This document shows, one piece after another, positions 2,026-56,846 of a stretch of DNA of 64,000 nucleotides. Under the pieces are notes generated by a model. That model was not told the origin of the DNA. It searched no databases and was given only the letters and a program-made list of their open reading frames with translations. The translations under genes and the position numbers were made by a program. The stretch lies in the IMG/VR virus record IMGVR_UViG_3300029319_007985, positions 1 to 64,000 of that record; one strand, written 5' to 3'. Origin of the DNA: a virus. Each line of letters begins with the position of its first letter. The stretch's first letter is position 1.

Positions 2026-2906
2026 GACGAACAGTTCATTGCACAGATCCAGTTACAATTTTTTGTAGTCCAAGTCTTTTTGATCGATTCGAAAGTTTCT
2101 AATTTTTGAAATGGCATGTCGGGCAGACCAAATCCCTGATAGCAACAAGGACCAATGTTACCCAAGGCATCTATATAAACTGATTGTCTTGTCTCGTGTT
2201 CGCAACTTAGATTGTAAACTTTGTCTTCAGTAAAAAAGTTTTTTCTTGTTTCTCTATATCTTTGCACACCTGCTTTCACGTCATAGACTCCAGGATGGCG
2301 ACTGTTATCGGCAGGTAATATCCAGTGAGTTATGTTGCCTTTTGTATCGAGGGCAGGGCCATAGTTTCTTCCATGATCCTCCACGTGGAACATCTTGAAA
2401 CCAAGTGTTCGCGATAGTGATCTTGCTTCTTCAACTTGGTGTGCATTGTGTTTGAAAATAATAAATTTCCACACTGCTTCTCCACCTGCTTCTATGAACC
2501 AAGACACTCTCTCCATTATCTTGCTCCAGGATACATCCTGTCTATAAAGATGATTGGTATCCTGCAGTCCATCTATGCTGAATGTTACCTCTACTCCTTT
2601 TTTTGCCAATTGTTCCCAGGTGTTCCTCTTTCCTACACTACCATTTGTGGTTATGCCTGTGCGACATGAGGTCACGTCTGCTAACTCCAAAATCCTAGGG
2701 TTCATCATAGGATCTCCAAGGTTACCATTAAAATAAACATAATCTCTTTCTGGAAAGTTTGACAAACAATTTTTAAACTTATCAACTGATAAATGAACTT
2801 CTGGGTAGACTCCTTCAACTTTTAATCCGTAGAGATTCCTTGGACATAAAGGACATCTTGCATTACAATATGTTGATGCTTCAACATGGATCTCTCTGAC
2901 TTGCAT
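2022..2906 (-). CDS. Radical SAM protein with a C-terminal Cys (twitch/SPASM-like) region
   Basis: CNARCPLC (CxxxCxxC), GDP, TNG, FSIDG, PCC motifs. Confidence 0.85.
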   Translation of the reverse strand: MQVREIHVEASTYCNARCPLCPRNLYGLKVEGVYPEVHLSVDKFKNCLSNFPERDYVYFNGNLGDPMMNPRILELADVTSCRTGITTNGSVGKRNTWEQLAKKGVEVTFSIDGLQDTNHLYRQDVSWSKIMERVSWFIEAGGEAVWKFIIFKHNAHQVEEARSLSRTLGFKMFHVEDHGRNYGPALDTKGNITHWILPADNSRHPGVYDVKAGVQRYRETRKNFFTEDKVYNLSCEHETRQSVYIDALGNIGPCCYQGFGLPDMPFQKLETFESIKKTWTTKNCNWICAMNCSS

Positions 2907-2920
2907 AATCCATATTTAAT

Positions 2921-2952
2921 AAAAAAAAGGGCGATAGTTGCCTACCGCCCTT
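2921..2952 (-). terminator. Rho-independent terminator
   Basis: GGGCGGTAG-GCAA-CTATCGCCC hairpin followed by T8 on the minus strand, just after ORF 2975-3358. Confidence 0.8.
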
Positions 2953-2974
2953 CTAATAGTGATTAGTATGTTAA

Positions 2975-3358
2975 TTACGCAGAGTAATTAATTACTTTTC
3001 TGCCTGACTTTTTAAGTAATGAAATTAAATTTGCTTTCATTCCTAAAGCAGATGATTTAGGTGCAGTACCTAAAACATTTACAGTAAAGTCAATACCTTT
3101 TGATAACAACTTGTTAGTCGCTGTTTTTCTTGCAGTATTTTTCACAGCCAAGTTTTTAAACTTGATTTTACCACCGTGAACTTCACCGTTTACTGTGTAT
3201 CCAGATACAGGTTCAGCAAATACACCAATTTGTTTTGCTCTTGTTCTGAACTCTCTTGTGTAGATTACGTATTGTTGTGATCTAGCCATTTTTCTTCCTT
3301 TTGTAGTTAAAGAAGAAGATGTTCTTGTATTCGAACCGAAGTCAAATAATCCAAACAT
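2975..3358 (-). CDS. Basic hypothetical protein
   Basis: GGAGG SD before ATG at 3358; sigma70-like promoter TTGACT-N17-TAAAAT at 3443-3415; own terminator; alternative start at MARSQQ. Confidence 0.7.
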   Translation of the reverse strand: MFGLFDFGSNTRTSSSLTTKGRKMARSQQYVIYTREFRTRAKQIGVFAEPVSGYTVNGEVHGGKIKFKNLAVKNTARKTATNKLLSKGIDFTVNVLGTAPKSSALGMKANLISLLKKSGRKVINYSA

Positions 3359-3464
3359 GCTTTCCTCCATTAGTTAAAAATAAACCAGGACTATCCTGGC
3401 CTATATAAAAATATATTTTACACGAAAATAAAAATAAGTCAACCGCTAATTGCAGTTTTGGTAA

Positions 3465-3911
3465 TTAATTGTCTTTGACCTTTGGCACATGGAACAGATC
3501 AACGCCTTCATCAAGTAATTTACTAACTTCTTCGTCGGATGGTGTGCCGTAAAACTTTTCATCTCTTTTGCCTGCTTGGCTTTTCTTTACCTCTTTATAG
3601 AACTTTTTACCAACATTTTCAAAGTTCTTCTCAACATATTTGTTTATCCTACGTAAAACAGCCTTGGCCTGCCCGGCCATCATGATGTCTTTGCTAGAAT
3701 AATCTACACTGTTTGTCGAGGAAACAGTTTTCTTTTGTGTTTGTTTCTTCTGGATGTTAGGTGCCATGATCGCTTTGTCAACATTACCACTGTCGCAGAA
3801 CGGACACAACAGTTGGCCAGTTTTTTTCTGCTTGGAAAAATCTTTGCTGTCTGGAAACCAACCCTCGAAAGTATTTGTGCAATCGCCACAATTTAAACTG
3901 TACTTGATCAT
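3465..3911 (-). CDS. DUF1178 family zinc-ribbon protein
   Basis: MIKYSLNC..FEGWF..CPFC..KAIMAP..FENVG..FYG pattern typical of DUF1178; start set by TAAATA-N5-ATG. Confidence 0.8.
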   Translation of the reverse strand: MIKYSLNCGDCTNTFEGWFPDSKDFSKQKKTGQLLCPFCDSGNVDKAIMAPNIQKKQTQKKTVSSTNSVDYSSKDIMMAGQAKAVLRRINKYVEKNFENVGKKFYKEVKKSQAGKRDEKFYGTPSDEEVSKLLDEGVDLFHVPKVKDN

Positions 3912-3967
3912 ACTATTATTTACTATTATACACTTGACTTGCATTTCTGTCTATTGTATTATTAGTC

Positions 3968-4111
3968 ATGGCAGTTAAATTTGGCGCAGTTGATAGACCC
4001 AGAAACATGAAAAGAACTTCTCAGGCTAGTAAAAAGAGAAGAGTCAAGTTTGCATCAATGAACAAACACAAAAGATTAAGTTGGAAGCCGGGCAGAGGTC
4101 AAGGTCGATAA
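3968..4111 (+). CDS. 47-aa highly basic protein
   Basis: Not in the ORF track: MAVKFGAVDRPRNMKRTSQASKKRRVKFASMNKHKRLSWKPGRGQGR; promoter TTGACT(3934)-N17-TATTAT(3957) directly upstream. Confidence 0.7.
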   Translation: MAVKFGAVDRPRNMKRTSQASKKRRVKFASMNKHKRLSWKPGRGQGR

Positions 4112-4524
4112 TCAAACATAGTGTATTTGAAGGCGTCTTTCTGCCGTCTAAATTTTATTGTGTCTGTGCTTATCTGGTAAACATTGTAAGGGCCACCTAG
4201 TTTTTTTATCTGTTTGTGATCTAATATTTCATTTTCTTTACATTCCACGCTGTAACCAAACCACATAGGCCACCACTTCAAAGGGTTAGTTCCGTATTCT
4301 TCAGCCGCTAGAAAATATGCAACCACAGGAATAAAACTTGCTATTTCAAAATACCAAGCAATCATACCAAAGGTAAAATGATCAAACCAATGCAGTATCA
4401 ACCAGTAGGAAAACCAAACTCCGGCCGCCAAGCCGAATACTATCCAACCATCCTCTTCGATTTCGAAACGCTCATGATGTGAATATCTGCCGCCAGAATC
4501 TGGTGGTGCCCAAAAGTTCATCAT
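4099..4524 (-). CDS. Hypothetical membrane protein
   Basis: Two hydrophobic segments; start set by TAAGTA-N5-ATG. Confidence 0.6.
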   Translation of the reverse strand: MMNFWAPPDSGGRYSHHERFEIEEDGWIVFGLAAGVWFSYWLILHWFDHFTFGMIAWYFEIASFIPVVAYFLAAEEYGTNPLKWWPMWFGYSVECKENEILDHKQIKKLGGPYNVYQISTDTIKFRRQKDAFKYTMFDYRP

Positions 4525-4592
4525 ATAATTACTTAACATATTTGTTGTAACGCTCACAAGAAGTTCACAACATCAATCCAAAAATAATCGTT

Positions 4593-8334: not shown

Positions 8335-8400
8335 GAAAAACACCCATAATAGCAATAGACAAATGCTTTTTCTGTGTTACAATAAATGTAAATACAACAA

Positions 8401-8703
8401 ATGCAGAAAAAAACCAATAGTATCCTAGAAGAACTAGCAAACGTTAGGTTAAACAAAGACCCAGAAAACTTTGTGGAACATCGTGCAAGTCACATCATTG
8501 ATAGTGCAATTAACCTTGTACATTACATTAGAGAAAACTTTGACCAACAAACTGCATACACATTAGAAAAAAAATTCAACTCGGCAATAAAGAATCTTGA
8601 CAGTAATAAATTTCATAAAGGCGTTTCACGTATCAAAGAACTAAAGGACGTAAAGAAGTCGTTCACCATTAAACAAGGCGAATTCAAAGACGAGGACGCA
8701 TAA
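8401..8703 (+). CDS. Hypothetical phage protein
   Basis: ORF preceded by TAAATA-N6-ATG. Confidence 0.65.
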   Translation: MQKKTNSILEELANVRLNKDPENFVEHRASHIIDSAINLVHYIRENFDQQTAYTLEKKFNSAIKNLDSNKFHKGVSRIKELKDVKKSFTIKQGEFKDEDA

Positions 8704-8706: not shown

Positions 8707-9444
8707 ATGCCTAATATTTTAGTTAATGGTGACTCTTTCAGTCATGAAAGACATTTTGCTATAGACGAATCTTATGTTGAAAAGACTTGGGCCTATAGTA
8801 TAGGAGCAAATAATATAGCATTGGGCGGATGTTCAAATGACAGAATTTTTTATTCTACAATAGAATATTTGAACAAAAATTTTGTTGATGTTTTGATTAT
8901 TGGCTGGACTAGTTTTGAACGTTACAGTTTACCTTTAAGTAAAGGACGTAATCTTCATTTGACACCTGGTGGAGCCGCTGACGATAATTTATTTGGATTT
9001 CTTGAACAGGATAAAGATGCGTATATACATTATCATGATTTTTATTACAAAAACTGCCACAACACTTTTTTAAACTTTCAACGCTTTTTAAATTTTTACC
9101 TACATCTACAAGACTATTGTGACATCAAAAAAATTAAATTCATTAATTTTTTATCAATGGATTCTTTCCCCAATACTAAACAAATAAAAAATATTGCCAA
9201 ATTGGCATATATGAATCGTTCGTCAAAAGATTTAGAACAAGCAGGCACAATTTACAACACTAATATATTAAACAATTTAATAGAAAAAATAGATCCAAAA
9301 AATTGGGTGCAAAACACCGTTGGATTCGCATATGAAAAGTTAGTAAAAGATAAAAACTTTCCTTTATTGAAGGATGGCCACCCAGGACTAGAAGCATCAA
9401 AGTATTGGGGCGAATTAATTCAACAACATATAGTTAAATATTGA
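8707..9444 (+). CDS. SGNH/GDSL hydrolase-like protein
   Basis: NGDSFS, NIALGGCSN, DGHP motifs. Confidence 0.65.
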   Translation: MPNILVNGDSFSHERHFAIDESYVEKTWAYSIGANNIALGGCSNDRIFYSTIEYLNKNFVDVLIIGWTSFERYSLPLSKGRNLHLTPGGAADDNLFGFLEQDKDAYIHYHDFYYKNCHNTFLNFQRFLNFYLHLQDYCDIKKIKFINFLSMDSFPNTKQIKNIAKLAYMNRSSKDLEQAGTIYNTNILNNLIEKIDPKNWVQNTVGFAYEKLVKDKNFPLLKDGHPGLEASKYWGELIQQHIVKY

Positions 9445-11680: not shown

Positions 11681-11695
11681 ACGGTAAATATGTGT

Positions 11696-12621: not shown

Positions 12622-12656
12622 TAGCATTGTAAATCAGAGAAAAAGGAGGATTAATA

Positions 12657-13082
12657 ATGCCAATAGCAACAAACAACAACAATCTAGGTACAACAATTGG
12701 GAACTTGTACACAGGACATGGAGTAGAATCCAAGTTCTTTACAGTAGTCGTAAAAGACAGTTCAGCAACTGCAATGGACCTAAGAGCACATGATGACTCA
12801 GATGGAAAATTCCATAAGGACGGTCTTGTAGACAGAGTTTTACAAATCGCCCAAACAAGAGGCACCATTGTGTACTTTAACGTAAAAAACGATAACAGTG
12901 GAACTATCACAATCGGAATGGAAGGTGAGTTTGGAACAGCAACTAACCTAGCATCTGCTTTTGATAACTCAGACGGTTCTAGCAACTTATCTGTTAAATT
13001 CAGAGCAACTGCTTCTTCTACAACAGAAGACGGTGTGGCTGACATTGCAGGTACGACTGTAACCGCTGATACACTTGTATAA
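12657..13082 (+). CDS. Putative virion structural protein, MPIA paralog 1
   Basis: Strong SD; A/T/S/D/G-rich; N-terminus MPIATNN shared with its neighbours. Confidence 0.65.
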   Translation: MPIATNNNNLGTTIGNLYTGHGVESKFFTVVVKDSSATAMDLRAHDDSDGKFHKDGLVDRVLQIAQTRGTIVYFNVKNDNSGTITIGMEGEFGTATNLASAFDNSDGSSNLSVKFRATASSTTEDGVADIAGTTVTADTLV

Positions 13083-13101
13083 TAACTGGGAGGAATAACA
13101 A

Positions 13102-13527
13102 ATGCCAATAGCAAGAAATAATTTCGCTTCGTTAGCCACAGCGGCTGAATTCGAAGGCGTGGACGTAAGTTTCCTAACAGTTGATTTCATTAACTCAATG
13201 GCGGCAGAAACAGGAGATCCACAAGCGGACTCCACTGTTGCAGGCTTGGCGTTAGTGAGACAGGCTCTAGAAAACTTAGGGTTTAACATAATCGGAAATG
13301 GTGCTTTAGCAGTATCAAGCACTGAGATGACTTACATGGTAAGAACAGACTCAGTAGATGCTACTCTATTAGCAACAGCATCCGACAACACAATAAGAGA
13401 CGCCATAAGAGCAGTTGACACAGCAGGTAGAGCCGCTTCGGCAACACCAAGAAACACTGCAAACTTTAGTGCGGCAACAGTAACAATCCAATCAGCAGGA
13501 ATGTCTGATACGGGTGTTAACGCTTAA
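13102..13527 (+). CDS. Putative virion structural protein, MPIA paralog 2
   Basis: GGAGG SD; MPIARNN. Confidence 0.65.
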   Translation: MPIARNNFASLATAAEFEGVDVSFLTVDFINSMAAETGDPQADSTVAGLALVRQALENLGFNIIGNGALAVSSTEMTYMVRTDSVDATLLATASDNTIRDAIRAVDTAGRAASATPRNTANFSAATVTIQSAGMSDTGVNA

Positions 13528-13548
13528 TAAGGTATAGGAGGATAACAA

Positions 13549-14112
13549 ATGCCAATAGCAAGTAACAATACAGGTATTATGTCAAGAAGACAATCTTTCA
13601 ACGGTAAAGGTTTAACTTTTATCGAAGTGATTTTTGACAATGCCATTACAGCGACAGCAACTACTCCTGATACAAAAGACTCAACTTTCCAAAAAGTTAG
13701 AGATGCAGTATTAGGCGGCGTTGTGTCAGGAACAACTTTGTTAGCACAATCTTACAGATTAGCGGCAAAGGCAACTGACGATGATGCATCTGAGGCGGCG
13801 GCGATCGACGCTGACGACTCAATCGATTCATATCAGTTTATCGTAGAAGGTTCGCCTGATGCGATTCAAACTGCTGACTCGACCGGCTCACCAAACGCTG
13901 GTGTGGCCGTTGCAACTCAAACTGCAGACGACACAGCAACTTTAATTTCAAGTGCTGAAGCAGATCTAGAAGCAGATATTCTATCAAGAATTGATGTATC
14001 TGACTCTGCTGGTAACGTGCATGTTAAAATCAGATTTTTACCATCTGATGGAGTTGGTTCTTCAGGCGGAAGTGCCGTTTACGGTATGTTCGACCAAAGA
14101 GGCGATGCATAA
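13549..14112 (+). CDS. Putative virion structural protein, MPIA paralog 3
   Basis: AGGAGG SD; MPIASNN. Confidence 0.65.
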   Translation: MPIASNNTGIMSRRQSFNGKGLTFIEVIFDNAITATATTPDTKDSTFQKVRDAVLGGVVSGTTLLAQSYRLAAKATDDDASEAAAIDADDSIDSYQFIVEGSPDAIQTADSTGSPNAGVAVATQTADDTATLISSAEADLEADILSRIDVSDSAGNVHVKIRFLPSDGVGSSGGSAVYGMFDQRGDA

Positions 14113-14169: not shown

Positions 14170-14188
14170 CTATTATGTAAATATCAAC

Positions 14189-16143: not shown

Positions 16144-16163
16144 GGAGACGCTAAATATAACAT

Positions 16164-17355: not shown

Positions 17356-17390
17356 TTGACACCACCAACAAAGGCTTATATAATAACATG

Positions 17391-18095
17391 ATGAAGATAT
17401 CTGAAGATGTTCTAAAGGACAAAGGCATTTCCTATATAAAAAAATATCCTTACGAAGACATCTCTAAAACTTCCAAAGGAGGAAAAAGGCACTATGAGAC
17501 TCCTGACGGGAGAGCAGTGCCAAGTGTGACCACAGTGTTATCAGCAACCAAGGACATGACCCATCTAAATGCTTGGAAGAAAAGGGTAGGTGAGCAAAAG
17601 GCACAACAAATTGCAACTGAATCTGCAAACATAGGCACAGTGATGCATCGCAGTCTTGAGAAACATGTTAAGGGACAAGACAGAACACCAGGCTCTAATT
17701 TGATTCAGCAAAAAGGATTTGCGATGGCAAACATTATTATAGATCAAGGTCTCAATGACGTGTCCGAAGTTTGGGGATCAGAAATATCTTTATACTATCC
17801 AGAACTATACGCAGGTACCACCGACTTAATTGGCATCTACAAAGATGCTCCTGCAATAATGGATTTCAAACAGGCCCGTAAATTAAAGAAAAAAGAATGG
17901 GTAGAGGACTATTTTTTACAGTTAGTAGCCTACGCAGAAGCACATAACAAACAATACGGCACAGACATAAAAACAGGGCGTATTTTTATATGTACGCAAA
18001 AAAATGAATTCCAAACGTTTGAACTAGAAAACTATGACCAGTGGGCAGGCAAATGGTATAGTAAATTAGAACAATATTACAAGTCTGTCCTTTAA
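17391..18095 (+). CDS. PD-(D/E)XK exonuclease (phage exonuclease/Cas4-like fold)
   Basis: PSVTTVL, GTVMH, YAGTTDL, IMDFK, QLVAYA motifs; promoter TTGACA(17356)-N17-TATAAT(17379). Confidence 0.85.
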   Translation: MKISEDVLKDKGISYIKKYPYEDISKTSKGGKRHYETPDGRAVPSVTTVLSATKDMTHLNAWKKRVGEQKAQQIATESANIGTVMHRSLEKHVKGQDRTPGSNLIQQKGFAMANIIIDQGLNDVSEVWGSEISLYYPELYAGTTDLIGIYKDAPAIMDFKQARKLKKKEWVEDYFLQLVAYAEAHNKQYGTDIKTGRIFICTQKNEFQTFELENYDQWAGKWYSKLEQYYKSVL

Positions 18096-23410: not shown

Positions 23411-23463
23411 CGTTAGACCAACTTCATTATAGTAGCACATTATTATTATCCATAAATATTGGT

Positions 23464-24996: not shown

Positions 24997-25362
24997 TTAT
25001 TTTATTTGGACGGTTGCACCTTGTTCTATAAGTGCTTTCTTGATTTCTTCTGCTTCGCTTTTATCGATATCTTCTTTGACTGCTTTAGGTAGACCTTCGA
25101 CAAAGTTTTTGGCTTCTAATAGGCCAAGTCCAAGTATTTCTTTTACTTTCTTTAGAACAGAGATTTTTTTACCATCCTCAAATCCTGTTAGCACAACAGA
25201 GGCAGTAGATTTTGCTTCTGCTGGTGCCTCGGCTGTTGGAGCCGCAACCATGCCTGCTGTTGCTGTTACACCCCACTCTTTCTCTAATTTGTTTGCTAAA
25301 TCCGCCGCTTCTTGCAGAGTCAATTTGCCTAACTGTTCAACTAAAGCATTAATATCGGCCAT
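24997..25362 (-). CDS. rplL: 50S ribosomal protein bL12 (L7/L12)
   Basis: MADINALVEQLGKLTLQEAADL..EWGV, KKISVLKKV..LGLLEAK..VE..P, GATVQIK; start 25362 overlaps the upstream stop. Confidence 0.93.
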   Translation of the reverse strand: MADINALVEQLGKLTLQEAADLANKLEKEWGVTATAGMVAAPTAEAPAEAKSTASVVLTGFEDGKKISVLKKVKEILGLGLLEAKNFVEGLPKAVKEDIDKSEAEEIKKALIEQGATVQIK

Positions 25363-25496: not shown

Positions 25497-25760
25497 TTAT
25501 CTCGAAAGTTTCTTTTTACGTCCTAAAGGCACCTTGACCATTCTTGCAATCTTGTTACCTTTTCTGTTCGTGTATTCAACACTGACTTCAGTTGTTCCTT
25601 TTGGTAAGTTGCTCTGAACCGACTTTATGATCTTTTTAAAAGATAGGCCTTCCTTGGTCTCATCAAATTCCTTAAGATCAGTTATCCTTATTGATAATTT
25701 TCTTTTGCTTTTGGCGTCTATTAGTGGTTGAAATGCCTTGTTAATTAATTCTTGACTCAT
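25497..25760 (-). CDS. Basic hypothetical protein
   Basis: TTGACA-N17-TATAAT-N6-ATG (25795-25760). Confidence 0.7.
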   Translation of the reverse strand: MSQELINKAFQPLIDAKSKRKLSIRITDLKEFDETKEGLSFKKIIKSVQSNLPKGTTEVSVEYTNRKGNKIARMVKVPLGRKKKLSR

Positions 25761-26074: not shown

Positions 26075-26080
26075 TAAAAC

Positions 26081-35215: not shown

Positions 35216-35231
35216 TAAAATAAGTACTACG

Positions 35232-37487: not shown

Positions 37488-37562
37488 AAAGCCAGTAAAA
37501 TCAACACTTTTTAACCAGATCAACTTGGTTGACGTATTTGGAAAATATGCTATAATTTACAC

Positions 37563-37727
37563 ATGATTAGATTGATAATATTGATTGCGATATTTTTTGC
37601 AGTTTATCCGATGATAGGTGAAGGCTATGATCAATTTTTGTCTGATTTTAATTTAGATGGAATTGGTAATATCTTTTCAAATCTTATTGCTTGGATGAGT
37701 GAAACTGTAGATAGGTTGCAATCTTAA
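37563..37727 (+). CDS. 54-aa membrane protein
   Basis: Not in the ORF track; TTGACG-N16-TATAAT-N6-ATG; MIRLIILIAIFFAVYP... Confidence 0.65.
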   Translation: MIRLIILIAIFFAVYPMIGEGYDQFLSDFNLDGIGNIFSNLIAWMSETVDRLQS

Positions 37728-39758: not shown

Positions 39759-39820
39759 TCACTTTACCAAATAATTCAGTAGCAGTAAAACGAAGTTTCT
39801 GTTATAGTAAATAATCTATA

Positions 39821-41590
39821 ATGTTTATAGCAATTCTTACACTTTTATCTGCATTATCCATCTCGGGTGTTGCAATTTTCTATTCTGTGATAGGACTCGC
39901 CACAATCTTCCCTGGAGCATTTTGGCCTGTGGTTATAATGGGGTCAGTTCTTGAGGTTGGAAAATTAATTACAGCCAGTTGGCTATATCGGCAATGGAAG
40001 TTTACACCATTCCTTCTCAAAACTTATCTTACTATTGCGGTCATAATACTGTCAATAATAACTTCAATGGGTATTTTTGGATTCTTATCTAAGGCACACC
40101 TTGAACAAAACTTAGCCAGTGATACCTTGGTGCAAAGGGTTGATATTATTAACGACAAGATAGAAAGCCAGACTATCTATATTGAAAGGCAAAAGGCAGT
40201 CATCACACGTTCTGAAAAAGCAATTGATCGAACAGGAAAAGATTTCACACAGGACATTGCGGTGCAGGAAAACATTATCAATTCTGCCTATCTAAGACTA
40301 CAAGTGCTTGACGCAGACGTAAAGGCATACACAGATCAAGGAAAAGGTTTTTGGAAGGGTGACAACATTGCCAAAGGTGTGGAACTAAGGAAACAACAAA
40401 AACCTGAACGTGATCAACTAAATGCAGAAATAAAAGAGGCCAAGGCAAAGATAGAGAAATATAGGAATGAAGGCAGGATCGCAGGAGATAATAACAAAAC
40501 TACAATTAAAGAAGCAGAAGAAAATATCATAGTTGCCCAAAATAAGATTGATGATCTTATTATCGAAAGACAGCCGTTAGAAAAAAAATTAATTAATTTA
40601 GAGGCAGAAGTAGGTCCAGTGAAATACATAGCCGCTCTTGCGGTTGACTGGGGGTTTGCCGAAGAAGTAAATTTATCCAAAGCAGTAAGATGGGTGATAT
40701 TGATTATAATTGTTGTTTTTGATCCACTTGCAGTTTTACTTTTAATTGCCGCGAACCAAAGTCTGGTTAGAAGATTTCCTGTTAAACCACCTAAGCCTCA
40801 AGAGATTATAGACTTGGAAAAACCAGATGATGAAAGTATTATTCTAAAATGGAGAGAAATGGCGGAGCAGGCTAGTAAAAAAAACGCCCAAGAAAAACAA
40901 ATCAAAATTAAACAGCAAGTAGATGAATGGCAACAAAAACTTAAAAAATTTAATGAAAAGGCTCCAAAACCAGAAGACAAGCCTGTAGAAGTTATAGTTG
41001 AGCAACCAAAGAAAGAACCGACTAAGGAACAAAAAATAGAGGCCTTTGATGAAAGATTGAGAGCAGAAGAGGCAGAACTTGAAAGAGTCGCGGCAGAAAC
41101 AAAAGCAGATATTGAGAGGATAGAAGAAACTAGCAAACCAGTTGAAGACTATAATTTTGAAGATGAAATAAAATATGATGTAGACACAGAAGTTAAAAAA
41201 ACAGACGAAGAGCCAGGCATAGCCAAGCAGATAGAAAAGGCAATGGAAGGTGTACAAGCAAGAATAAAGCCTGACTTTACAGAAGTGATAGAGCCTGAAA
41301 GCCAAATTAAAAAACCAAAAGTGGGTGCCCTAGGCACAGTGTTGGTTGATAAAGGCAAGGTGATTAAACAACAACCTGCTTACACACAAAACTCTGAGCA
41401 AAATGAATCTGGTAACTGGAGTAAGATTAACGAAAAGCGTCTTATTGACGAAGAGACATATAGACAAAAAATTGAATCAAGAATAAATGATTTAATCATC
41501 AAAGTAAAAACTGGAGAAATGAAATTGGAAGACCTTGCCGAGGAAGATCAAAAATTAGTCAAACAAGCGATGGATAATGGAAACGACTAG
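39821..41590 (+). CDS. Membrane protein with periplasmic coiled coil and charged tail
   Basis: 3 N-terminal TMs (LEVGK, TSMGIFGFLSKAH), EVGPVKY, VFDPLAVLL TM. Confidence 0.7.
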   Translation: MFIAILTLLSALSISGVAIFYSVIGLATIFPGAFWPVVIMGSVLEVGKLITASWLYRQWKFTPFLLKTYLTIAVIILSIITSMGIFGFLSKAHLEQNLASDTLVQRVDIINDKIESQTIYIERQKAVITRSEKAIDRTGKDFTQDIAVQENIINSAYLRLQVLDADVKAYTDQGKGFWKGDNIAKGVELRKQQKPERDQLNAEIKEAKAKIEKYRNEGRIAGDNNKTTIKEAEENIIVAQNKIDDLIIERQPLEKKLINLEAEVGPVKYIAALAVDWGFAEEVNLSKAVRWVILIIIVVFDPLAVLLLIAANQSLVRRFPVKPPKPQEIIDLEKPDDESIILKWREMAEQASKKNAQEKQIKIKQQVDEWQQKLKKFNEKAPKPEDKPVEVIVEQPKKEPTKEQKIEAFDERLRAEEAELERVAAETKADIERIEETSKPVEDYNFEDEIKYDVDTEVKKTDEEPGIAKQIEKAMEGVQARIKPDFTEVIEPESQIKKPKVGALGTVLVDKGKVIKQQPAYTQNSEQNESGNWSKINEKRLIDEETYRQKIESRINDLIIKVKTGEMKLEDLAEEDQKLVKQAMDNGND

Positions 41591-41891
41591 ACTAGGCAAA
41601 CTGACTTTGGTTACACCACCCAGTATCTTAGAAGATAACAAAAACAGTTTTTGTATAATAAACTTCAAAACAGAAGATCAAGACAAGTTTGCCAATTATC
41701 TAAACAGGCATCTAGCAAATGATGATGTTGTTGTTTACGTTGTAGACAGTGCCAAGGACACTGAATTAACTTTGCCATGGTTGACAAACATACTAGAAAA
41801 GTCTAAAACTGTTATAGTTAAATCACAAAATAATTTTAAAGTTTTGAAAAACGAAACAATAATTGACTTGGAGGCGATATTCAATGAGTGA
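41577..41891 (+). CDS. Hypothetical protein
   Basis: ORF overlapping both neighbours. Confidence 0.6.
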
Positions 41892-43146
41892 TACAGATCA
41901 AAATCTTAATTGTTCTTTCTGTGGTAAGGGCAGGAAAGATGTCTCAAAAATGATCGTTGGTGCTGATAAAGTTACAATTTGTAATGAGTGTATAAAATTA
42001 TGCACAGAGATCATTGTGGAGGATAACCAAAAGGTTAGCAGTGAGCAAATCAAAACTGGTGAGAAACAAAATTTAAATCCTGTGGACATAAAAGAATATC
42101 TTGATCAATATGTTGTTGGGCAAGACTCTGCAAAAACTGTTCTTAGTGTTGCTGTGTCTAATCACTATAAAAGAATTTTAAATCCACCAAAGGACTTTGA
42201 ATTAGAAAAATCAAACGTTCTTATACTTGGTGCAAGTGGTTCCGGAAAAACACTTATGGCACGAACCATTGCCAAATATTTGGATGTGCCTTTTGCTATG
42301 GCAGATGCTACAAGTTTGACCGAGGCTGGATATGTTGGTGATGACGTTGAAAATGTAATCACTAAACTTTATCAAAACGCCAAGGGAGACAAATACATGA
42401 CTGAAAGAGGCATTGTGTTCATAGACGAAATTGATAAAATTTGTAAGAAATCAGAAAGCACCAGTATAACCAGAGACGTATCCGGAGAAGGAGTTCAACA
42501 AGGTTTACTTAAAATAGTCGAGGGCACAATTTGTAGGGTTCCACCACACGGAGGAAGGAAACACCCTGAACATCAACACGTTGAGATCGACACCTCAAAC
42601 ATTTTGTTTGTCGTTGGTGGTGCTTTTACAGACCTGGAACGACAAATTAAATCTAGAAAAAGCACAGGAATGGGTTTTAACTCTGAATTGATATCAAGCG
42701 AACAAAAAAACTACTTGGCAGAATCTCAACCAGAGGACCTAATTAAATTTGGACTGATACCGGAGTTTGTTGGCAGATTTAGTATGCTTACTCACGTGGA
42801 TCCATTGACAGAACTTCAATTAGTAAAAGTTTTAAATGAACCAAAAAATAGTTTACTGAAACAATATTCCTACTTGTTTAGTCTTGATCATATTAATTTA
42901 GAGATAGACAAAAAGGCCCAGTTGGCTGTTGCTAAAAAGGCTAAAAAATTAGGCACAAATGCAAGAGGATTAAGAAACATCTTGGATACTCTTCTCCTGC
43001 CTTACCAGTTTGACTCTGCTGAGATGCATAAAAAAGGAGTCACAAAAGTATCAATCACAGAAGAGTGTGTTGACAAAAACCAAGATCCTGTGTTACATTT
43101 TAAAACACCGGTAAACGAAATGAAAAAACAAAAGGCGAAAAATTAA
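41884..43146 (+). CDS. clpX: ATP-dependent Clp protease ATPase ClpX
   Basis: CSFC/CNEC zinc finger, [40 protein letters not shown] loop. Confidence 0.97.
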
Positions 43147-43376
43147 TGGCATACTACGTGGATGTTACAAAATCTGGCGGAGATGCTGTTCGAGCCTATA
43201 GAAAAATCAAAAGAAAGATCAAACAAGACAGGTTCATTGAGGAACTACGTGATAGACAATATTACCGTAAACCTTCCGAATTAAAACGTGAGAAACAAAA
43301 GAGAGCACGTATCACAATAAAGAGAAACCAAGCCAAAAGTAATTGGGCAGATCCAAGTAAAGTAAGACAAAGATAA
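43146..43376 (+). CDS. rpsU: 30S ribosomal protein bS21
   Basis: A.RK.KRK......EL..RQYY.KPSE.KR; coupled to clpX. Confidence 0.85.
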   Translation: MAYYVDVTKSGGDAVRAYRKIKRKIKQDRFIEELRDRQYYRKPSELKREKQKRARITIKRNQAKSNWADPSKVRQR

Positions 43377-44005: not shown

Positions 44006-44041
44006 AATAGACATATGTTTTAAATATGTTATAATTGGAGT

Positions 44042-44353
44042 ATGGCAATGGCAGATTTAGGTGTTAAAACACTAACAAAAGACAAACTAGAATTAAAAGA
44101 ACCAGACAAATACGATGTGGTATTCGTTAATGATGATGTGACCACTGTAGAATTTGTTATTAAAGTTCTAAAAAATATATTTCATAAAACAACAGAACAA
44201 GCAGTTGCATTAACAACACACATTCACGAAAAAGGCAAAGGTGTTGTTGGCACATACCTGTACGAAATTGCAGAACAAAAAGGTATAGAAACAACTGTCC
44301 TTGCCAGAGACGAAGGATATCCATTACAGGTAAAAGTTCAAAGGCACGGTTAA
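44042..44353 (+). CDS. clpS: ClpS N-degron adaptor
   Basis: Y.VVFVNDDVTTVEFVI.VL..IF, IHEKGKGVVG.Y.YEIAE.K, GYPL. Confidence 0.93.
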   Translation: MAMADLGVKTLTKDKLELKEPDKYDVVFVNDDVTTVEFVIKVLKNIFHKTTEQAVALTTHIHEKGKGVVGTYLYEIAEQKGIETTVLARDEGYPLQVKVQRHG

Positions 44354-47287: not shown

Positions 47288-47316
47288 TTGACACTATCCA
47301 ACTTATGTCATATAAT
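47288..47316 (+). promoter_or_regulatory. Consensus sigma70 promoter of riboswitch-btuB
   Basis: TTGACA-N17-TATAAT. Confidence 0.85.
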
Positions 47317-47327: not shown

Positions 47328-47430
47328 CTGTGCTAAAAGCATAGTGGGAAAGTGACGTGAAATTCGTCCACATTACTTGATACGGTCATAGTCCGAATGC
47401 CACCTAGCACAGGACAGAGCAAGGAGACTC
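47328..47430 (+). promoter_or_regulatory. Class-II (AdoCbl-variant, env8HyCbl-like) cobalamin riboswitch
   Basis: CTAAAAGC.TAGTGGGAAAGTGACGTGAAATTCGTCCA.ATTACTTGATACGG...CCGAATGCCACCTAG...GAGCAAGGAGACTC; closing stem CTGTGCTA/TAGCACAG; SD in the terminal hairpin loop. Confidence 0.92.
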
Positions 47431-47432
47431 GA

Positions 47433-49262
47433 ATGATGAGATTAGTTCTTATGTTAATCTTGGTGTGGACATCTATCGCACACGCCAAAACGGAAAGTTG
47501 CAGTTGGGACAACGACGTTCCATGTGTCGTAATATCCAAACCAAATACAAATTTAATAAATGAAAAGGTGTCACCCAGCACGGTGATCACACAAGAACAA
47601 ATCAAAAAACATAATCTTTTGGACCTTAAAAGTGTTTTCAAGTTCCTCAACAACACAATTGCCGTGCAGTCAGGACCTACTGGACAACAGGCATCAGTTT
47701 TCATGCGAGGTACAAACAGCAACCACACACTAGTGTTATTGAACGGAATACCTATCAACGATCAAAGCACCACCAATGGTGCCTTTGATTTTGGACAAGA
47801 CTTCCTTTTCAACGTGCAAAGAATAGAAGTATACAAAGGTGCCGCTGGCGCACACTTTGGCGCTGACGCTATAGGAGGTGCAATAAATTTAATAACTGAC
47901 ATCGACTATCAAAATAACTTTTCAATAACAGGACATAACAATAGTAAGACCATAGAAGGAAACTATGCCTCTGAATACAATGGTTGGCAGTTTAACGTCA
48001 AAGGTGGATTGCATCAGTCTGAAACACAGTCGGCTCTAAAGGGAGGAACTGATCTTGACGGGACAAAAAATAAATCATGGACCGCAAGTGTAGTTAAATG
48101 GTTCAACGAAAAATTAAAATTTAGATCGAACCTCTTTACAAGAAATACTTTTAGTGATCTGGATGGCCATTCATTGGCCCTGCAAAATGGATATGACAGC
48201 GACAACAATCTTTATGCCTTCCAAACTGGGTTTGACTACTACACTAAAGACAGTCTCAGTTATGTCACACTGCACACCCATGGATATGACAGAGAGTACA
48301 ATAGTCCAGGCAACGAGTTCGACAACTATGAATCTGACGCCTACGTATTAAGAGCAGAACATAAAAAATACAAAGATGGGCCTTTCAAGTATGGACTAGG
48401 ATTTGAATACAAATACGATGTGGCCACGTTCACCAACAACGGATCATACAACAGCACATTGGATGGGGACTATGATAACATAGGACTATTTGTTAATTTT
48501 GGATATGAGTTCGACAACTGGGCAACCACGTTGAATCTAAGAACAGATGACAACAACCTCATAGGTAACAACGACAGTTACAAATTTGGGATATTAAGAC
48601 AGGACATATTGCCAAATCTCGATGTAAGTTTCAGTCGTGCAGAAGGGTTTAAAAATCCTAGTCTGTATGAAATGTTTGGTGCTGACAACTACGGATACAA
48701 AGGCAACATGGATTTGACAGCAGAAAACAGTATCCTCAACGAAGTCACGTTCGACTATGGTATTGACAAAAGCAAATACTCTTTGACATTGTTTAGAAAT
48801 CAAATAACAAACATGATCGAATACAGTTATCCAACATACAAAAACAATAGCACTGACTCTCTGGACCAAAGCGGAATCGAATTGTCCTACTCCTACAACG
48901 GAGATAAAAATAATTTCACCATTTGGGCAAACAGTCTCAGTAGTGAGAAAGGCAACAATTCAGCGCAGTTGAGGAGACCTGAGCATAGCATTGGTTTCAA
49001 TTATGAAAGGGTAGTCACCAACACATGGAGTTACTATGCAAACTACAACTTTACAGGCGAACACCATGACATACACAACAGTAATTGGAGCACAATTACC
49101 ATGCCCGACACCCACTTGCTTGATATAGGTATAACAAAAAATTACTATGGAATCGATTTAGGTTTAAGTATTAGCAATGTTTTCGACCAAGACTATGAAC
49201 AACCACATGGATTTAGTCAGGATGGAAGAAAAATTAATTTTATACTTAAACGTAGGTTTTGA
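47433..49262 (+). CDS. btuB: TonB-dependent cobalamin receptor (BtuB-like)
   Basis: Signal peptide; plug RGTNSNHTLVLLNG, RIEVYKG, GAIN; C-terminal F; riboswitch upstream. Confidence 0.88.
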   Translation: MMRLVLMLILVWTSIAHAKTESCSWDNDVPCVVISKPNTNLINEKVSPSTVITQEQIKKHNLLDLKSVFKFLNNTIAVQSGPTGQQASVFMRGTNSNHTLVLLNGIPINDQSTTNGAFDFGQDFLFNVQRIEVYKGAAGAHFGADAIGGAINLITDIDYQNNFSITGHNNSKTIEGNYASEYNGWQFNVKGGLHQSETQSALKGGTDLDGTKNKSWTASVVKWFNEKLKFRSNLFTRNTFSDLDGHSLALQNGYDSDNNLYAFQTGFDYYTKDSLSYVTLHTHGYDREYNSPGNEFDNYESDAYVLRAEHKKYKDGPFKYGLGFEYKYDVATFTNNGSYNSTLDGDYDNIGLFVNFGYEFDNWATTLNLRTDDNNLIGNNDSYKFGILRQDILPNLDVSFSRAEGFKNPSLYEMFGADNYGYKGNMDLTAENSILNEVTFDYGIDKSKYSLTLFRNQITNMIEYSYPTYKNNSTDSLDQSGIELSYSYNGDKNNFTIWANSLSSEKGNNSAQLRRPEHSIGFNYERVVTNTWSYYANYNFTGEHHDIHNSNWSTITMPDTHLLDIGITKNYYGIDLGLSISNVFDQDYEQPHGFSQDGRKINFILKRRF

Positions 49263-53241: not shown

Positions 53242-54195
53242 ATGAAACACATAACACAAATCCTTTGTGCAGTGTTTTTATTCTCAACCACAGTATCGGC
53301 AAAAACTCCAGCAATCAAAATTGTAGGTAGTTCAACTGTCTATCCTTTCACCACAGTAGTGGCAGAAAGATTTGGACAGGAGACAAAATATCCTACACCG
53401 GTTGTTGAGTCTACAGGTACAGGTGGCGGAATGAAACTATTCTGTGCAGGGGTAAACACAAACACTCCTTCTGTGACCAATGCCTCCAGAGCAATTAAAA
53501 GCAAAGAGAAAGCATTGTGTGAAAAGAACGGAGTATCATGGATTGAGATCGCAGTGGGCAATGACGGTATTGCTTTTGCCAATTCAAACGACGGACCAAA
53601 GATAAACATCACAAAGAAGCAGTTATGGGAAGCCATGGGTGCTCTTGGATCACATCCTAAGAAATGGTCAGACATAGACGCAAGTCTACCAGACCAAGAA
53701 ATCAAAGTGATGGTACCACCTCCAACATCAGGAACCAGAGATGCATGGAACAGTCTTGTAATGAAAAAAGGATGTCCTAAAGACATACTTGAAGCACAAG
53801 GCAAAAAGAAATGCTATCTTTTGAGAGAAGATGGAGCAATGGTTGAAGCAGGAGAAAATGACACTTTGTTAATACAAAAACTTGTGGCAGATCCTAAATA
53901 TTTTGCAATATTTGGATTCAGTTATCTAGACAATGCAAGAGACAAAGTAAAAGCGGCAACAATTGAAGATGCAGAAATAAGTCTTGATTCTATTCAGGAC
54001 TATTCTTATCCGGTGGCTAGACCTTTATTCATATACATCAAAAAAGAACACATAGGTACTGTTCCAGGACTGAACAAGTTCGTTAAGATGTATGTCAGTA
54101 AAAAGACCATGGGTCCAAAAGGTTACTTGATTGACAGAGGACTAGTGCCTTTGGACAAAGCAACCTACAAGGAAATGGTAAGCAGAACCAAATAG
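53242..54195 (+). CDS. pstS: Phosphate ABC transporter substrate-binding protein
   Basis: GSSTVYPF, ESTGTGGGMKLFC, NASR, PPPTSGTRD, YPVARPLF.Y. Confidence 0.95.
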   Translation: MKHITQILCAVFLFSTTVSAKTPAIKIVGSSTVYPFTTVVAERFGQETKYPTPVVESTGTGGGMKLFCAGVNTNTPSVTNASRAIKSKEKALCEKNGVSWIEIAVGNDGIAFANSNDGPKINITKKQLWEAMGALGSHPKKWSDIDASLPDQEIKVMVPPPTSGTRDAWNSLVMKKGCPKDILEAQGKKKCYLLREDGAMVEAGENDTLLIQKLVADPKYFAIFGFSYLDNARDKVKAATIEDAEISLDSIQDYSYPVARPLFIYIKKEHIGTVPGLNKFVKMYVSKKTMGPKGYLIDRGLVPLDKATYKEMVSRTK

Positions 54196-54231
54196 ATAGA
54201 CATTGTTCGCAATACCCAATAAAATACTTTT

Positions 54232-55041
54232 ATGAAAAGATTGGGTATTGTTGGACATGGCTTTGTGGGATCTGCTATCAATCAAGGCTTTACCAAAAAC
54301 ATACAGAAATACATTGTTGATCCAAACAAGTTCAGTGGCAACACAATTCAACAACTTATAAAATTCAAACCCGACGCAGTGTTTGTTGCGGTTCCAACTC
54401 CACAACTTGAAACAGGAGAGTGTAACACAGAAATATTGGATTCAGTGTTGCAAGAACTGAATCAGGCAAAGGCCCTTTTAGTCATCATCAAGTCCACAGT
54501 GCCCGCATATAAACTACAAGCGATCAAAGAACAGTGTATAAATTTGAGAATAGTGTACAATCCAGAATTCCTAACTGAAAAGAATTATCTCCAGGATTTT
54601 AAAAGTCCTCCCATGCATGTTTTTGGAGGAGCAATCACAGACACAGAACAAGTTGAGGCGCTGTACAAGGAGTACAGCAGTTGTAAAAAGTGTCCTGTTT
54701 TCCATACAGACATCGTGTCAGCGTCTATGGTCAAGTACTGCATTAACAGTTTCCTTGCCACGAAGGTCACGTTCATGAACGAGATGTATGACGTGCTGAA
54801 AGCGGCCAAAGGAACTGATTGGAGTGAGTTTGTCAAAATAATCAACAGCGACCCAAGGATAGGCAAGACACATATGAGGGTTCCAGGCAATGACGGAGTC
54901 AGAGGTTACGCCGGGTCATGCTTTCCCAAGGACACTGCCGCACTGGCCTATTTTGCCAGAGAGATACTGAACACGCCATTTACACAACTAGAAACTAGTA
55001 TTGAAATCAACGACAAGTTAAGGAAAAAGAACCAGTCCTAA
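54232..55041 (+). CDS. UDP-glucose/GDP-mannose 6-dehydrogenase family protein (short phage form)
   Basis: GHGFVG, VPTP, IKSTVP, NPEFL, KY..N.FLA.K, GYAGSCFPKD. Confidence 0.88.
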   Translation: MKRLGIVGHGFVGSAINQGFTKNIQKYIVDPNKFSGNTIQQLIKFKPDAVFVAVPTPQLETGECNTEILDSVLQELNQAKALLVIIKSTVPAYKLQAIKEQCINLRIVYNPEFLTEKNYLQDFKSPPMHVFGGAITDTEQVEALYKEYSSCKKCPVFHTDIVSASMVKYCINSFLATKVTFMNEMYDVLKAAKGTDWSEFVKIINSDPRIGKTHMRVPGNDGVRGYAGSCFPKDTAALAYFAREILNTPFTQLETSIEINDKLRKKNQS

Positions 55042-55057
55042 ACGATTAAATAGTGTT

Positions 55058-56239
55058 ATGAAACCGTGGTTTATAGACGAAGCAGAAATAATCAAATTTC
55101 CTACGAAAAAAAGCAATGTGGTCACAATGCCCAATGTTAACAGTTATCCAGACTTTATCACAGGTGTGCGTGATCTACAGGCCAAACTCAAAGACAAAAC
55201 CATATCAACAGACAGTTACAACAAACTATACACTGACCTAATAAACAGATTTAGACTGCAAAGGGAGTCTGCGGACAAACCATGGTTCTTAAAAGAATTA
55301 GACGACCGTGGCATTATGAGTGTTATCAAAGCAAGACTAAAAGATCCAAATATCGACACTGAAACTTTACAAAAAGTGTTATTTGCTCTTGAAGGTGGTG
55401 GCCTAACAAAAAGATTACAAAATGTTTTAGAAAACGACCCAGATGCAAAAAGGATACTAGAAAAAGTTACAGAAACAATTTTACAGGCCAAAGGAACCAC
55501 AGAAGAAATTGATCAATTTATAAAACAATATCCACAAGGAATGGTTAAAATTGATGCATTAACATCACCAGGTGCTAAAAGTTGGGGAGACATATTTGTT
55601 GGATATGATGGCCAAAATTTTATGAGTAGAGTGGTAGAAAGATTGTATGGACTAAAAAATCAAGGAATAGGTCCAGGTGAAGTATGCCTTTCTGTATTGA
55701 GTCCACAAATATTCCATAGTGGATCAAAACCAGGAGCGGGAGATATCTTTGTTGAGGGCCAAGGTCATTTTGAAATAAAAGCCAGTGTGGCTAAACCAGG
55801 TAGACTATTTGATGGAAGAAAAGCAAAGGTTGACATGAACACAATACAGAATGTAAGAGATCAACTGAAGATTGATAAGCCTAGAGTCAACTTGAAAGAC
55901 CTTATAGCGGCCAATCCAAATCAACAACAAGTGGCTTCATTGACAAAAGCAATATTTAGACATGTTGATAACATCACACCATTTGTAAATGCAATTATGA
56001 AAAAGGACGAGGGTGCCGCAAAACTAGAACACACAAAACTGGCATACCAAAATTATCAAAATATGACAGCGCAAGGTGATGACACCTTTGTTGGAATAAT
56101 TTTCATGAGTGGTGCTAAAAAATGGTCAAATGTCGTGACAAATATTGACCAGTTGATACAGAACGTTGCAGTTGGCACGGTGTACGTTGCATCACCAGAC
56201 CAAGCAGATTTATTTCCACAGACCACCTACAAGTTTTAA
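55058..56239 (+). CDS. Hypothetical late protein with a possible PD-(D/E)XK motif
   Basis: GIGPGE, GDI...FEIKA; TAAATA-N5-ATG. Confidence 0.55.
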   Translation: MKPWFIDEAEIIKFPTKKSNVVTMPNVNSYPDFITGVRDLQAKLKDKTISTDSYNKLYTDLINRFRLQRESADKPWFLKELDDRGIMSVIKARLKDPNIDTETLQKVLFALEGGGLTKRLQNVLENDPDAKRILEKVTETILQAKGTTEEIDQFIKQYPQGMVKIDALTSPGAKSWGDIFVGYDGQNFMSRVVERLYGLKNQGIGPGEVCLSVLSPQIFHSGSKPGAGDIFVEGQGHFEIKASVAKPGRLFDGRKAKVDMNTIQNVRDQLKIDKPRVNLKDLIAANPNQQQVASLTKAIFRHVDNITPFVNAIMKKDEGAAKLEHTKLAYQNYQNMTAQGDDTFVGIIFMSGAKKWSNVVTNIDQLIQNVAVGTVYVASPDQADLFPQTTYKF

Positions 56240-56267
56240 ACACCTATGACACCATAAGTAAAAGTGT

Positions 56268-56846
56268 ATGAGCACTTATCTAGATGGAAAACTTTTGGTT
56301 GCTCCTCCAAAAATGAAAGATTGGAGATTTGCCAGAAGTGTGGTTTATATCTTCAAACATGACGTCAGTGGTGCGGGCGGGATCATAGTAAATAAAAAAG
56401 TTAGTGTGCCCACCTTTGACACTGTTTGCAAAACAGGCCATATCAAAAAAGATCCAAGTGTAAACCCCACAATTTTTTATGGCGGCCCAGTTATGACCAA
56501 TCTGATTGGTTGCTTACACACCTTGGATTATAGAATAGGAACCACCAATGTCTCTACAAGCAATGTTGGATTTACTCTAGACAAGAGCATAATAGAAGAT
56601 ATCGCAGTCGGCAAAGGCCCCAAAAAGTTTTTGCTTACCATGGGAATCTCTAGTTGGGAAGCAGGACAACTGGAGTCTGAAATCGATGCGCTACCACCGA
56701 GACAAAAAACAGGTTCTTGGCTCTCAATCAATTACGACAAAGAAATAGTTTTTGGACCCAAACTACAGTCCCTTTGGTCAGATTGTGTTTTTAGGTGTGT
56801 TGAAAACACAACCAAAGACTTCACAGACAAAGTTTTTAAAAATTAA
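56268..56846 (+). CDS. YqgE/AlgH (DUF179) family protein
   Basis: GKLLVA.P...D..F.RSV, G.IVN, YGGPV, G.SSW.AGQLE.E. Confidence 0.88.
   Translation: MSTYLDGKLLVAPPKMKDWRFARSVVYIFKHDVSGAGGIIVNKKVSVPTFDTVCKTGHIKKDPSVNPTIFYGGPVMTNLIGCLHTLDYRIGTTNVSTSNVGFTLDKSIIEDIAVGKGPKKFLLTMGISSWEAGQLESEIDALPPRQKTGSWLSINYDKEIVFGPKLQSLWSDCVFRCVENTTKDFTDKVFKN

Follow-up and report, generated by a model that had tools for sequence, protein, structure and literature searches.

Promoters of two kinds set against start codons in a distant T4-like marine phage

We analysed the organization of gene starts in a 64-kb stretch of viral DNA (the window), the first part of IMG/VR virus record IMGVR_UViG_3300029319_007985 (172,389 bp, G+C 37%, rated 47% complete by CheckV). 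Sigma70-type promoters and T4-type late boxes with the core TAAATA are set directly against start codons, and the first gene of many transcription units is likely to be expressed from an mRNA that is leaderless or has a leader of no more than 3 nt. As a feature of the sequence this layout is confirmed and conserved, and it was found at 56-60 of the 220 genes of the record, about a quarter of all genes and about 40% of the uncoupled ones. The source is an uncultured, distant T4-like marine phage, since only 27 proteins of Pelagibacter phage HTVC008M match the fragment, with a mean identity of 38%. The nrdA/nrdB DNA is ~70% identical to that of HTVC008M and 66-68% identical to that of cyanomyophages. 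The fragment also agrees with the published description of pelagimyophages, in which S21 belongs to the core, some PMP-A genomes have L12, and genes of the radical-SAM and curli kinds occur (PMC7029224).

The 220 genes came from a crude gene caller, with starts set by the rule of the longest open reading frame (ORF). We scanned every hexamer at every offset before these starts, a search unbiased by sites noticed beforehand. The top pair was TAAATA with a gap of 5 nt, seen 9 times against 0.06 expected (p 2e-17); TAAATA with a gap of 6 nt and TATAAT with a gap of 6 nt ranked second and third, and the first Shine-Dalgarno (SD) hexamer came only fourth. A count free of gene calls, made on both strands of the whole record and requiring that the ATG open an ORF of at least 60 aa, gave the same picture. 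Such an ATG lies 4-7 nt past 29 of the 92 TAAATA copies (4, 11, 9 and 5 copies at distances 4 to 7, against about one at each other distance), and exactly 6 nt past 12 of the 187 TATAAT copies. The original prediction, made from the letters of the window, had named a genome-wide histogram of motif-to-ATG distances as a check of its claim, and this histogram has peaks far above chance.

We ran the same scripts on HTVC008M, Syn9, P-SSM4, T4 and a SAR11-like genome, the last being 400 kb of one marine alphaproteobacterial single-cell genome (contig C1, bases 1-400000). TAAATA is the rarest of the 15 hexamers of composition A4T2 in the record: it occurs 92 times, the next-lowest of them 193 times and the median one 247 times. 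It is also the rarest of them in T4, HTVC008M and P-SSM4, but only fifth of 15 in a bacterial genome. Perfect promoters of the form TTGACA-N16-18-TATAAT occur 11 times in the record against about 0.3 expected by our own base-composition estimate, and six of the 11 adjoin an ATG at 6-7 nt. When up to 2 mismatches in the 12 positions were allowed, a sigma70-type promoter was found at 18 gene starts. The starts of the 220 genes are distributed as follows:

82 genes overlap or abut the upstream gene, including 21 with ATGA and 19 with a 1-nt overlap of the TAATG type.
31 genes have TAAATA at 4-8 nt.
7 genes have a late-box variant such as TAAGTA.
18 genes have a full sigma70 promoter at 5-7 nt.
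4 genes have a -10 box only.
26 genes are SD-led and uncoupled.
14 genes follow a short gap without SD.
38 genes have no recognised signal.

SD-bearing starts amount to 24% in this phage versus 48% in HTVC008M.

Eighteen sites in the window had been listed by the original prediction, seven sigma70-type and eleven late-type, and all could be read back at their coordinates with the boxes and spacings claimed for them. At the sigma70-type sites the -10 box is TATAAT, TAAAAT or TATTAT and ends 6 nt before the ATG (5 nt at 3968), and a TTGACA-like -35 box lies 16-17 nt above each:

3934-3970, plus strand: TTGACT-N17-TATTAT, 5-nt spacer, ATG 3968; 47-aa ORF, back to back with the 3911 unit.
17356-17393, plus strand: perfect TTGACA-N17-TATAAT, 6-nt spacer, ATG 17391; PD-(D/E)XK nuclease gene.
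25758-25795, minus strand: perfect TTGACA-N17-TATAAT, 6-nt spacer, ATG 25760; 87-aa ORF, candidate start.
29476-29513, plus strand: TTGCTT-N17-TATAAT, 6-nt spacer, ATG 29511; internal candidate start, the longest ORF running from 29451.
37529-37565, plus strand: TTGACG-N16-TATAAT, 6-nt spacer, ATG 37563; 54-aa ORF.
44008-44044, plus strand: TAGACA-N16-TATAAT, 6-nt spacer, ATG 44042; clpS.
54197-54234, plus strand: TAGACA-N17-TAAAAT, 6-nt spacer, ATG 54232; UDP-glucose dehydrogenase-like gene.

Late boxes, TAAATA or its variant TAAGTA, stand before the following genes of the window:

2918-2913, minus strand: TAAATA, 6-nt spacer, ATG 2906; radical-SAM gene 2022-2906, with a terminator-like hairpin and T-run directly upstream.
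3922-3917, minus strand: TAAATA, 5-nt spacer, ATG 3911; DUF1178 gene, in tandem with TAGACA-N17-TATAAT (from 3953).
4535-4530, minus strand: TAAGTA, 5-nt spacer, ATG 4524; candidate start, internal to ORF 4099-4557.
8389-8394, plus strand: TAAATA, 6-nt spacer, ATG 8401; in tandem with TAGACA-N16-TACAAT at 8356-8383.
9435-9440, plus strand: TAAATA within the 3' end of the upstream ORF, 5-nt spacer, ATG 9446; DUF6267 gene.
11685-11690, plus strand: TAAATA, 5-nt spacer, ATG 11696.
14178-14183, plus strand: TAAATA after a terminator-like hairpin, 5-nt spacer, ATG 14189.
16152-16157, plus strand: TAAATA, 6-nt spacer, ATG 16164; virion structural, scaffold-like gene.
23453-23458, plus strand: TAAATA, 5-nt spacer, ATG 23464; PAAR-motif gene.
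35221-35226, plus strand: TAAGTA, 5-nt spacer, ATG 35232; sufB.
39808-39813, plus strand: TAAATA, 7-nt spacer, ATG 39821; first gene of a block of overlapping genes, 39821-43376, whose last gene is bS21.
55047-55052, plus strand: TAAATA, 5-nt spacer, ATG 55058.
56255-56260, plus strand: TAAGTA, 7-nt spacer, ATG 56268.
63448-63453, plus strand: TAAATA, 8-nt spacer, ATG 63462.

The sites at 39821, 56268 and 63462, together with one at 7681, go beyond those listed before. The claim that the two promoter-to-ATG spacings are fixed stands as far as narrow bands are concerned, but not in its strict form: late boxes lie 4-8 nt from the ATG with a mode of 5-6 nt, and early -10 boxes 5-7 nt with a mode of 6 nt. 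Terminator-like hairpins precede only two late units.

Two arrangements of these sites were noted in addition. Divergent promoter-ATG units share short intergenic DNA, 56 nt between ATG 3911 (minus) and ATG 3968 (plus), and 41 nt between 99978 (minus) and 100020 (plus) of the record. At the tandem sites (8356-8403, and 3909-3953 on the minus strand) a sigma70-type promoter lies 13-17 nt, and a late box 5-6 nt, before one and the same ATG. There the early transcript would have ~7-10 nt of leader with no SD, and the late one would start without a leader. The tandem arrangement at 8401 is kept in relatives.

We followed the boxes through 20 IMG/VR relatives (L004-L023) and 80 metagenomic loci carrying orthologues. 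Upstream of gene 11696, TAAATA is found at exactly 5 nt in 12 of 12 relatives, with many different spacer sequences. The box remains 5-8 nt from the ATG in relatives at genes 8401 (nine relatives), 3911 (where the 5-nt spacing is kept) and 16164. The strongest case is gene 16164, whose orthologues (protein identity 61-89%, alignment conserved from M1) have exact TAAATA in 52 of 52 distinct metagenomic upstream sequences; the spacing varies between 5 nt (18 sequences), 6 nt (15), 7 nt (13) and 8 nt (6), with 27 different spacers and always an ATG. In these orthologue boxes there is no conserved -35, and the first two positions of the T4 box (TA) are not conserved, while the core is invariant. 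The sigma70 class is kept as well: the -35 and -10 boxes of gene 17391 lie 6-7 nt from the start codon in relatives, where the start is twice GTG, and the 3968 orthologue in relative L023 has TTGACG-N17-TATAAT-N6-ATG. The DUF6267 gene 9446 is coupled in most relatives, which have no inserted upstream gene; TAAATA-N5 is present here and in relative L014, where another gene lies upstream. Where gene order differs, the promoter module travels with the gene.

One of the 80 loci with a 16164 orthologue, contig Ga0181585_10025226 (L175), begins exactly at the ATG of that gene. This may be chance, or the contig may be derived from a transcript.

Could the whole pattern be an artefact of AT-rich DNA, of stop codons within the motifs, or of starts picked to fit? 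The genome has a G+C of 37%, a TAA is part of both TAAATA and TATAAT, and for six of the 18 ATGs listed by the original prediction (3911, 4524, 11696, 17391, 25760 and 29511) the same ORF has an earlier start codon. Against this, the association has p about 1e-17 under the longest-ORF rule, the main spacings (TAAATA-N5 and TATAAT-N6) put the TAA out of frame, the box was kept in 52 of 52 orthologue upstream sequences, and control genomes of similar G+C have no such peak. We tested and rejected this explanation, whose probability we consider negligible. Among the 31 late boxes there are only 6 in which the TAA terminates the upstream gene (21 are intergenic and 5 lie inside the upstream ORF), and therefore the motif is not a by-product of stop codons or translational coupling, a candidate that we ruled out. 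Mis-called starts were ruled out for most sites by Pfam or homologue alignments, by conservation and by the scarcity of alternatives, as a downstream in-frame SD-led start is available in only 4 of 56 leaderless candidates. Homologues or Pfam back the choice of start at 3911, 11696 and 17391; at 3911, positions 1-146 of the Pfam DUF1178 profile align from residue 1 of the product.

The two classes of promoter head different kinds of genes, as judged by PHROGs and Pfam. TAAATA precedes genes for a tail-fibre/baseplate protein, three virion structural proteins, an Rz-like spanin and a PAAR protein, as well as auxiliary genes (SOD, peptide deformylase, radical SAM, SufB and DUF1178). Sigma70-type promoters precede genes for an endonuclease, an exonuclease, the PD-(D/E)XK nuclease, QueE, a GroES-like co-chaperonin, ClpS and small unknown proteins; virion proteins are absent from this class. 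With nuclease and host-takeover genes under the early type and virion and lysis genes under TAAATA, the partition resembles the split into early and late genes that a T4-type phage should have, and it speaks against TAAATA as a ribosome-binding motif of general use. For one sigma70-headed gene, 54232-55041, the Pfam match of the product to the N-domain starts only at profile position 62, and the C-terminal domain is missing; this UDP-glucose dehydrogenase-like protein may be a truncated or split form. Family matches were not found for its neighbours 53242-54195 and 55058-56239.

We propose the following explanation. In the early class, host sigma70-RNA polymerase would read TTGACA-N16-18-TATAAT, and the canonical +1, 7 nt past the -10 box, would coincide with the A of the ATG. 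In the late class, the T4-type box with the core TAAATA and no -35 would presumably be read by a gp55-like phage sigma factor with gp33 and the sliding clamp. The T4 late promoter is an 8-bp box, TATAAATA, that spans -13 to -6 and is recognised by gp55 together with gp33 and the gp45 clamp (PMC2988020). Since this box ends at -6, a 5-nt spacer would again place +1 on the A of the ATG. With the canonical +1 on the A of the ATG or within 1-3 nt of it, no SD could be transcribed; none of the 56 leaderless candidates has a transcribable SD 4-mer in its spacer. The 5'-terminal AUG would be bound by the ribosome without SD, and the downstream genes of each unit would be translated through ATGA/TAATG coupling or from SDs of their own. 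What the sequences show directly is the motifs, their geometry and conservation, their division by gene function and one positive control at an RNA gene; where the transcripts really begin, which sigma factor serves the late class and how the ribosome binds are what we infer.

Two RNA elements of the window provide positive controls within the sequence itself, for the promoter model and, indirectly, for how far +1 lies from the -10 box:

26042-26425, plus strand: two-piece (permuted) transfer-messenger RNA (tmRNA) gene of alphaproteobacterial type (Rfam tmRNA_permuted 87 bits, alpha_tmRNA 61 bits).
47288-47316, plus strand: perfect TTGACA-N17-TATAAT, followed by an AdoCbl-II (B12) riboswitch at 47330-47410 (84 bits), a leadered contrast.

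The tmRNA, whose tag peptide is ANRKALRFADLVAMPTSGSALRLAA according to ARAGORN, is the RNA-gene control of the two. Its perfect TTGACA-N17-TATAAT at 26046-26074 predicts +1 at 26081, which is the first base of the tmRNA_permuted match (26081-26289). The riboswitch overlaps ATG 47397 of a 621-aa gene (47397-49262). Leaders would be retained where control at the RNA level or very high output is needed, as at the riboswitch and at the SD-led genes. The original prediction was right that strong SDs are kept on the MPI-start genes (12657, 13102, 13549 and 23764) and on hsp20 (43506):

12640-14112, plus strand: three tandem MPI-start paralogues, ATG 12657, 13102 and 13549, each with an AGGAGG-type SD.

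The four MPI-start genes (12657-14112 and 23764-24996, plus strand), for which no PHROG or Pfam family match was found, bear the strongest SDs of the window. A late box can also have a leader: at 87260-87301 of the record ATAAATA is followed by 24 nt, including AAAGGAG, and by ATG 87299 of an 850-aa gene. Hence, not every late promoter of this genome is fused to a start codon.

Several points weigh against promoters that yield leaderless mRNA. The transcript 5' ends are placed by promoter geometry only. Spacings of 7-8 nt imply leaders of 2-3 nt, which would not be strictly leaderless, and spacings of 4 nt need a shifted start. The ATGs at 4524, 25760 and 29511 are unverified candidate starts. 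Searches by tblastn, with gp55 and gp45 of T4 and HTVC008M and gp33 of Syn9 and HTVC008M as queries, found no homologue of these proteins in the 172-kb fragment, which is ~47% complete, or in the 20 short relatives. Finally, 4-8 nt is also the usual range of ribosome-binding motifs, and the geometry alone leaves room for a translational role of TAAATA.

That last point leads to an alternative, in which TAAATA is not a promoter but an AU-rich, SD-independent ribosome-binding or enhancer element on longer transcripts, as in SD-poor bacteria. Such a role would suit the spacing, the SD-poor starts of the probable host lineage (see below), the failure of tblastn to find a late sigma factor in the 172-kb fragment, and those boxes that lie inside operons, where read-through transcripts would carry them. 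TAAATA, however, is the known late promoter of T4, and in T4 and cyanophages it stands 19-29 nt upstream and is followed by an SD. It is limited to virion, lysis and some auxiliary genes instead of serving all genes, and both strands of the genome have otherwise been cleared of it, an avoidance that a ribosome-binding site would not call for. Moreover, the sigma70 class has the same geometry with an unmistakable -35/-10 pair, and the modal spacing of 5 nt equals the distance from the T4 box to +1. We therefore regard the ribosome-binding alternative as unlikely and favour two classes of promoter that set +1 at or near the start codon.

The host may share some of this design. SufB is ~70% identical to proteins from bacteria of many phyla, and the best matches (72%) are to marine alphaproteobacterial single-cell genomes of 30% G+C and 1.3-1.4 Mb, a weak pointer to the host lineage. 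bL12, 40-60% identical across 182 genomes of the phylum, is uninformative on the host. The host lineage is probably SAR11 or another alphaproteobacterium. In the SAR11-like genome an SD 4-mer was found at only 16-19% of starts, and TANNNT peaks exactly 6 nt before start codons, in 47 of 409 genes against a baseline of ~19. Among the 202 genes that lie 20 nt or more from the gene upstream, TANNNT at 6 nt was found in 35, against 11.7 +/- 3.6. The peak and the scarcity of SDs suggest a sizeable class of leaderless genes in this streamlined bacterium. If this lineage is the host, as is probable, leaderless genes would already make up about a tenth of the unit-leading genes of the host. The original prediction had taken an equal leaderless fraction in the host to speak against reliance of the phage on leaderless initiation, and this was found in part, as the SAR11-like genome has a 6-nt TANNNT peak of its own. 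Leaderless mRNAs are common, too, in Bradyrhizobium, another alphaproteobacterium, where 192 transcription start sites fall on the start codon (PMC4842269). The layout of the phage fits a host lineage with few SDs and leaderless genes of its own, and it predicts that SAR11-type ribosomes handle leaderless mRNAs efficiently.

The phage also encodes two ribosomal proteins:

43146-43376, plus strand: bS21 gene; its ATG overlaps the upstream stop codon (TAATG).
24997-25362, minus strand: bL12 gene; it truly begins at ATG 25362 (MADINALV...), behind an AAGGA SD, and is hence leadered.

Counted from the late box at 39821, bS21 is the fourth gene of its block and might be late, but a weaker sigma70-like match in 10 of 12 positions lies at 43070-43099, inside the upstream gene, and could give earlier expression. 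The original prediction held that the phage relies heavily on leaderless initiation, that this could explain its bS21 and bL12, and that it would let phage mRNAs escape a shut-off of SD-led host translation. The first of these claims is borne out in sequence terms, but the link to the two proteins and to the escape is not supported. In the fullest form of such a scheme, the leaderless classes, bS21, bL12, the alpha-type tmRNA, peptide deformylase and ClpS would make up one translation take-over, with bS21 or bL12 tuning host ribosomes to mRNAs with a 5'-terminal AUG late in infection, so that phage messages would take precedence in an SD-poor, slow-growing host of the SAR11 type; we think this very unlikely. 

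It is just as improbable that bS21, bL12 or both simply remodel ribosomes to favour leaderless phage mRNAs and so escape an SD-led shut-off. Both proteins are truly encoded, and bS21 goes together with the late leaderless class, the two being present in this phage and HTVC008M and both absent from Syn9, P-SSM4 and T4; S21 is core in pelagimyophages and absent from cyanomyophages (PMC7029224). This co-occurrence, the only point in favour of the layout as an explanation of bS21 and bL12, is a single contrast that is fully confounded with host and phylogeny. Early leaderless mRNAs precede any phage protein, and so would be translated by unmodified host ribosomes. The idea also sits poorly with the strong AGGAGG-type SDs of the phage itself, which stand before the MPI-start genes and hsp20 as well as before a tail-protein gene (134336) and the 850-aa gene (87299), and with a probable host lineage that has few SDs and a 6-nt -10 peak of its own. 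Lastly, E. coli ribosomes without uS2 and bS21 translate the leaderless lambda cI mRNA better (PMC10491246).

Compared with known systems, the late class is closest to that of T4, the textbook model of late transcription with leadered SD mRNAs. In both, an AT-rich box of the -10 type with the core TAAATA and no -35 precedes virion and lysis genes and is avoided elsewhere. In T4, Syn9 and P-SSM4, however, the box peaks 19-29 nt before the ATG, with an SD in the leader, whereas here it lies at 4-8 nt with no SD; in the hexamer scan of T4, SD motifs dominate. The cultured SAR11 phage HTVC008M shares the TAAATA-N5-ATG class, with a sharp peak of 12 sites at exactly 5 nt, and all seven sites inspected there are starts of RefSeq-annotated coding sequences, among them those for the tape measure, DNA end protector, head closure and tail tube cap. 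HTVC008M has genes for gp55, gp33 and gp45 and, like this phage, for bS21 (some PMP-A pelagimyophages encode L12), but it is without the TATAAT-N6-ATG early class that this phage has. The fused late layout is thus common to this phage, its uncultured relatives and HTVC008M, not to T4 or cyanomyophages, and the fused early layout was seen in this phage and its close relatives. Prediction of late promoters in pelagimyophage genomes has been reported as failed (PMC7029224), which fused boxes would explain. In uncultured T4-like phages of marine and fresh waters, TAAATA-N5-ATG could then serve as a simple rule for locating gene starts and assigning temporal classes.

The early units resemble the PeSL cassettes of RB49 and phi1 (PMC2839356), in which a sigma70 early promoter directly precedes many small early ORFs of a T4-type genome. 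PeSLs have a stem-loop and an SD between promoter and ATG, and the early units here have neither; membership was ruled out, as they have no SD and no room for one. A likeness in geometry is offered by phage lambda. Its PRM promoter has TAGATT, a 6-nt spacer and the ATG, the same 6-nt arrangement. As proposed for the early class, this sigma70 promoter has its +1 on the A of the AUG of cI (PMC10491246), but cI is a single regulatory gene of a temperate phage, in contrast to dozens of genes in two temporal classes here. Leaderless middle and late genes are described for Thermus phage phiYS40 (Sevostyanova 2007, as cited in PMC4842269 and PMC12340547). This case, and the "-10 adjacent to the ORF" arrangement of Deinococcus-Thermus, are similar in the large-scale use of promoter elements abutting ORFs and in a host that itself uses leaderless mRNAs, and differ in phage family, host phylum and motif (extended -10, TGnTA).

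In the searchable literature we found no description of a genome in which a quarter of the genes have a T4-type late box or a sigma70 promoter fused to the start codon, in a clade that includes a cultured SAR11 phage. Leaderless phage mRNAs, as in lambda cI and phiYS40, and T4 late promoters are already known; it is their combination that is new. If our reading is true, a large share of the genes of a very abundant group of ocean phages would be expressed without ribosome-binding sites, from the same box that T4 places above a leader and that this phage and HTVC008M fuse to the start codon.

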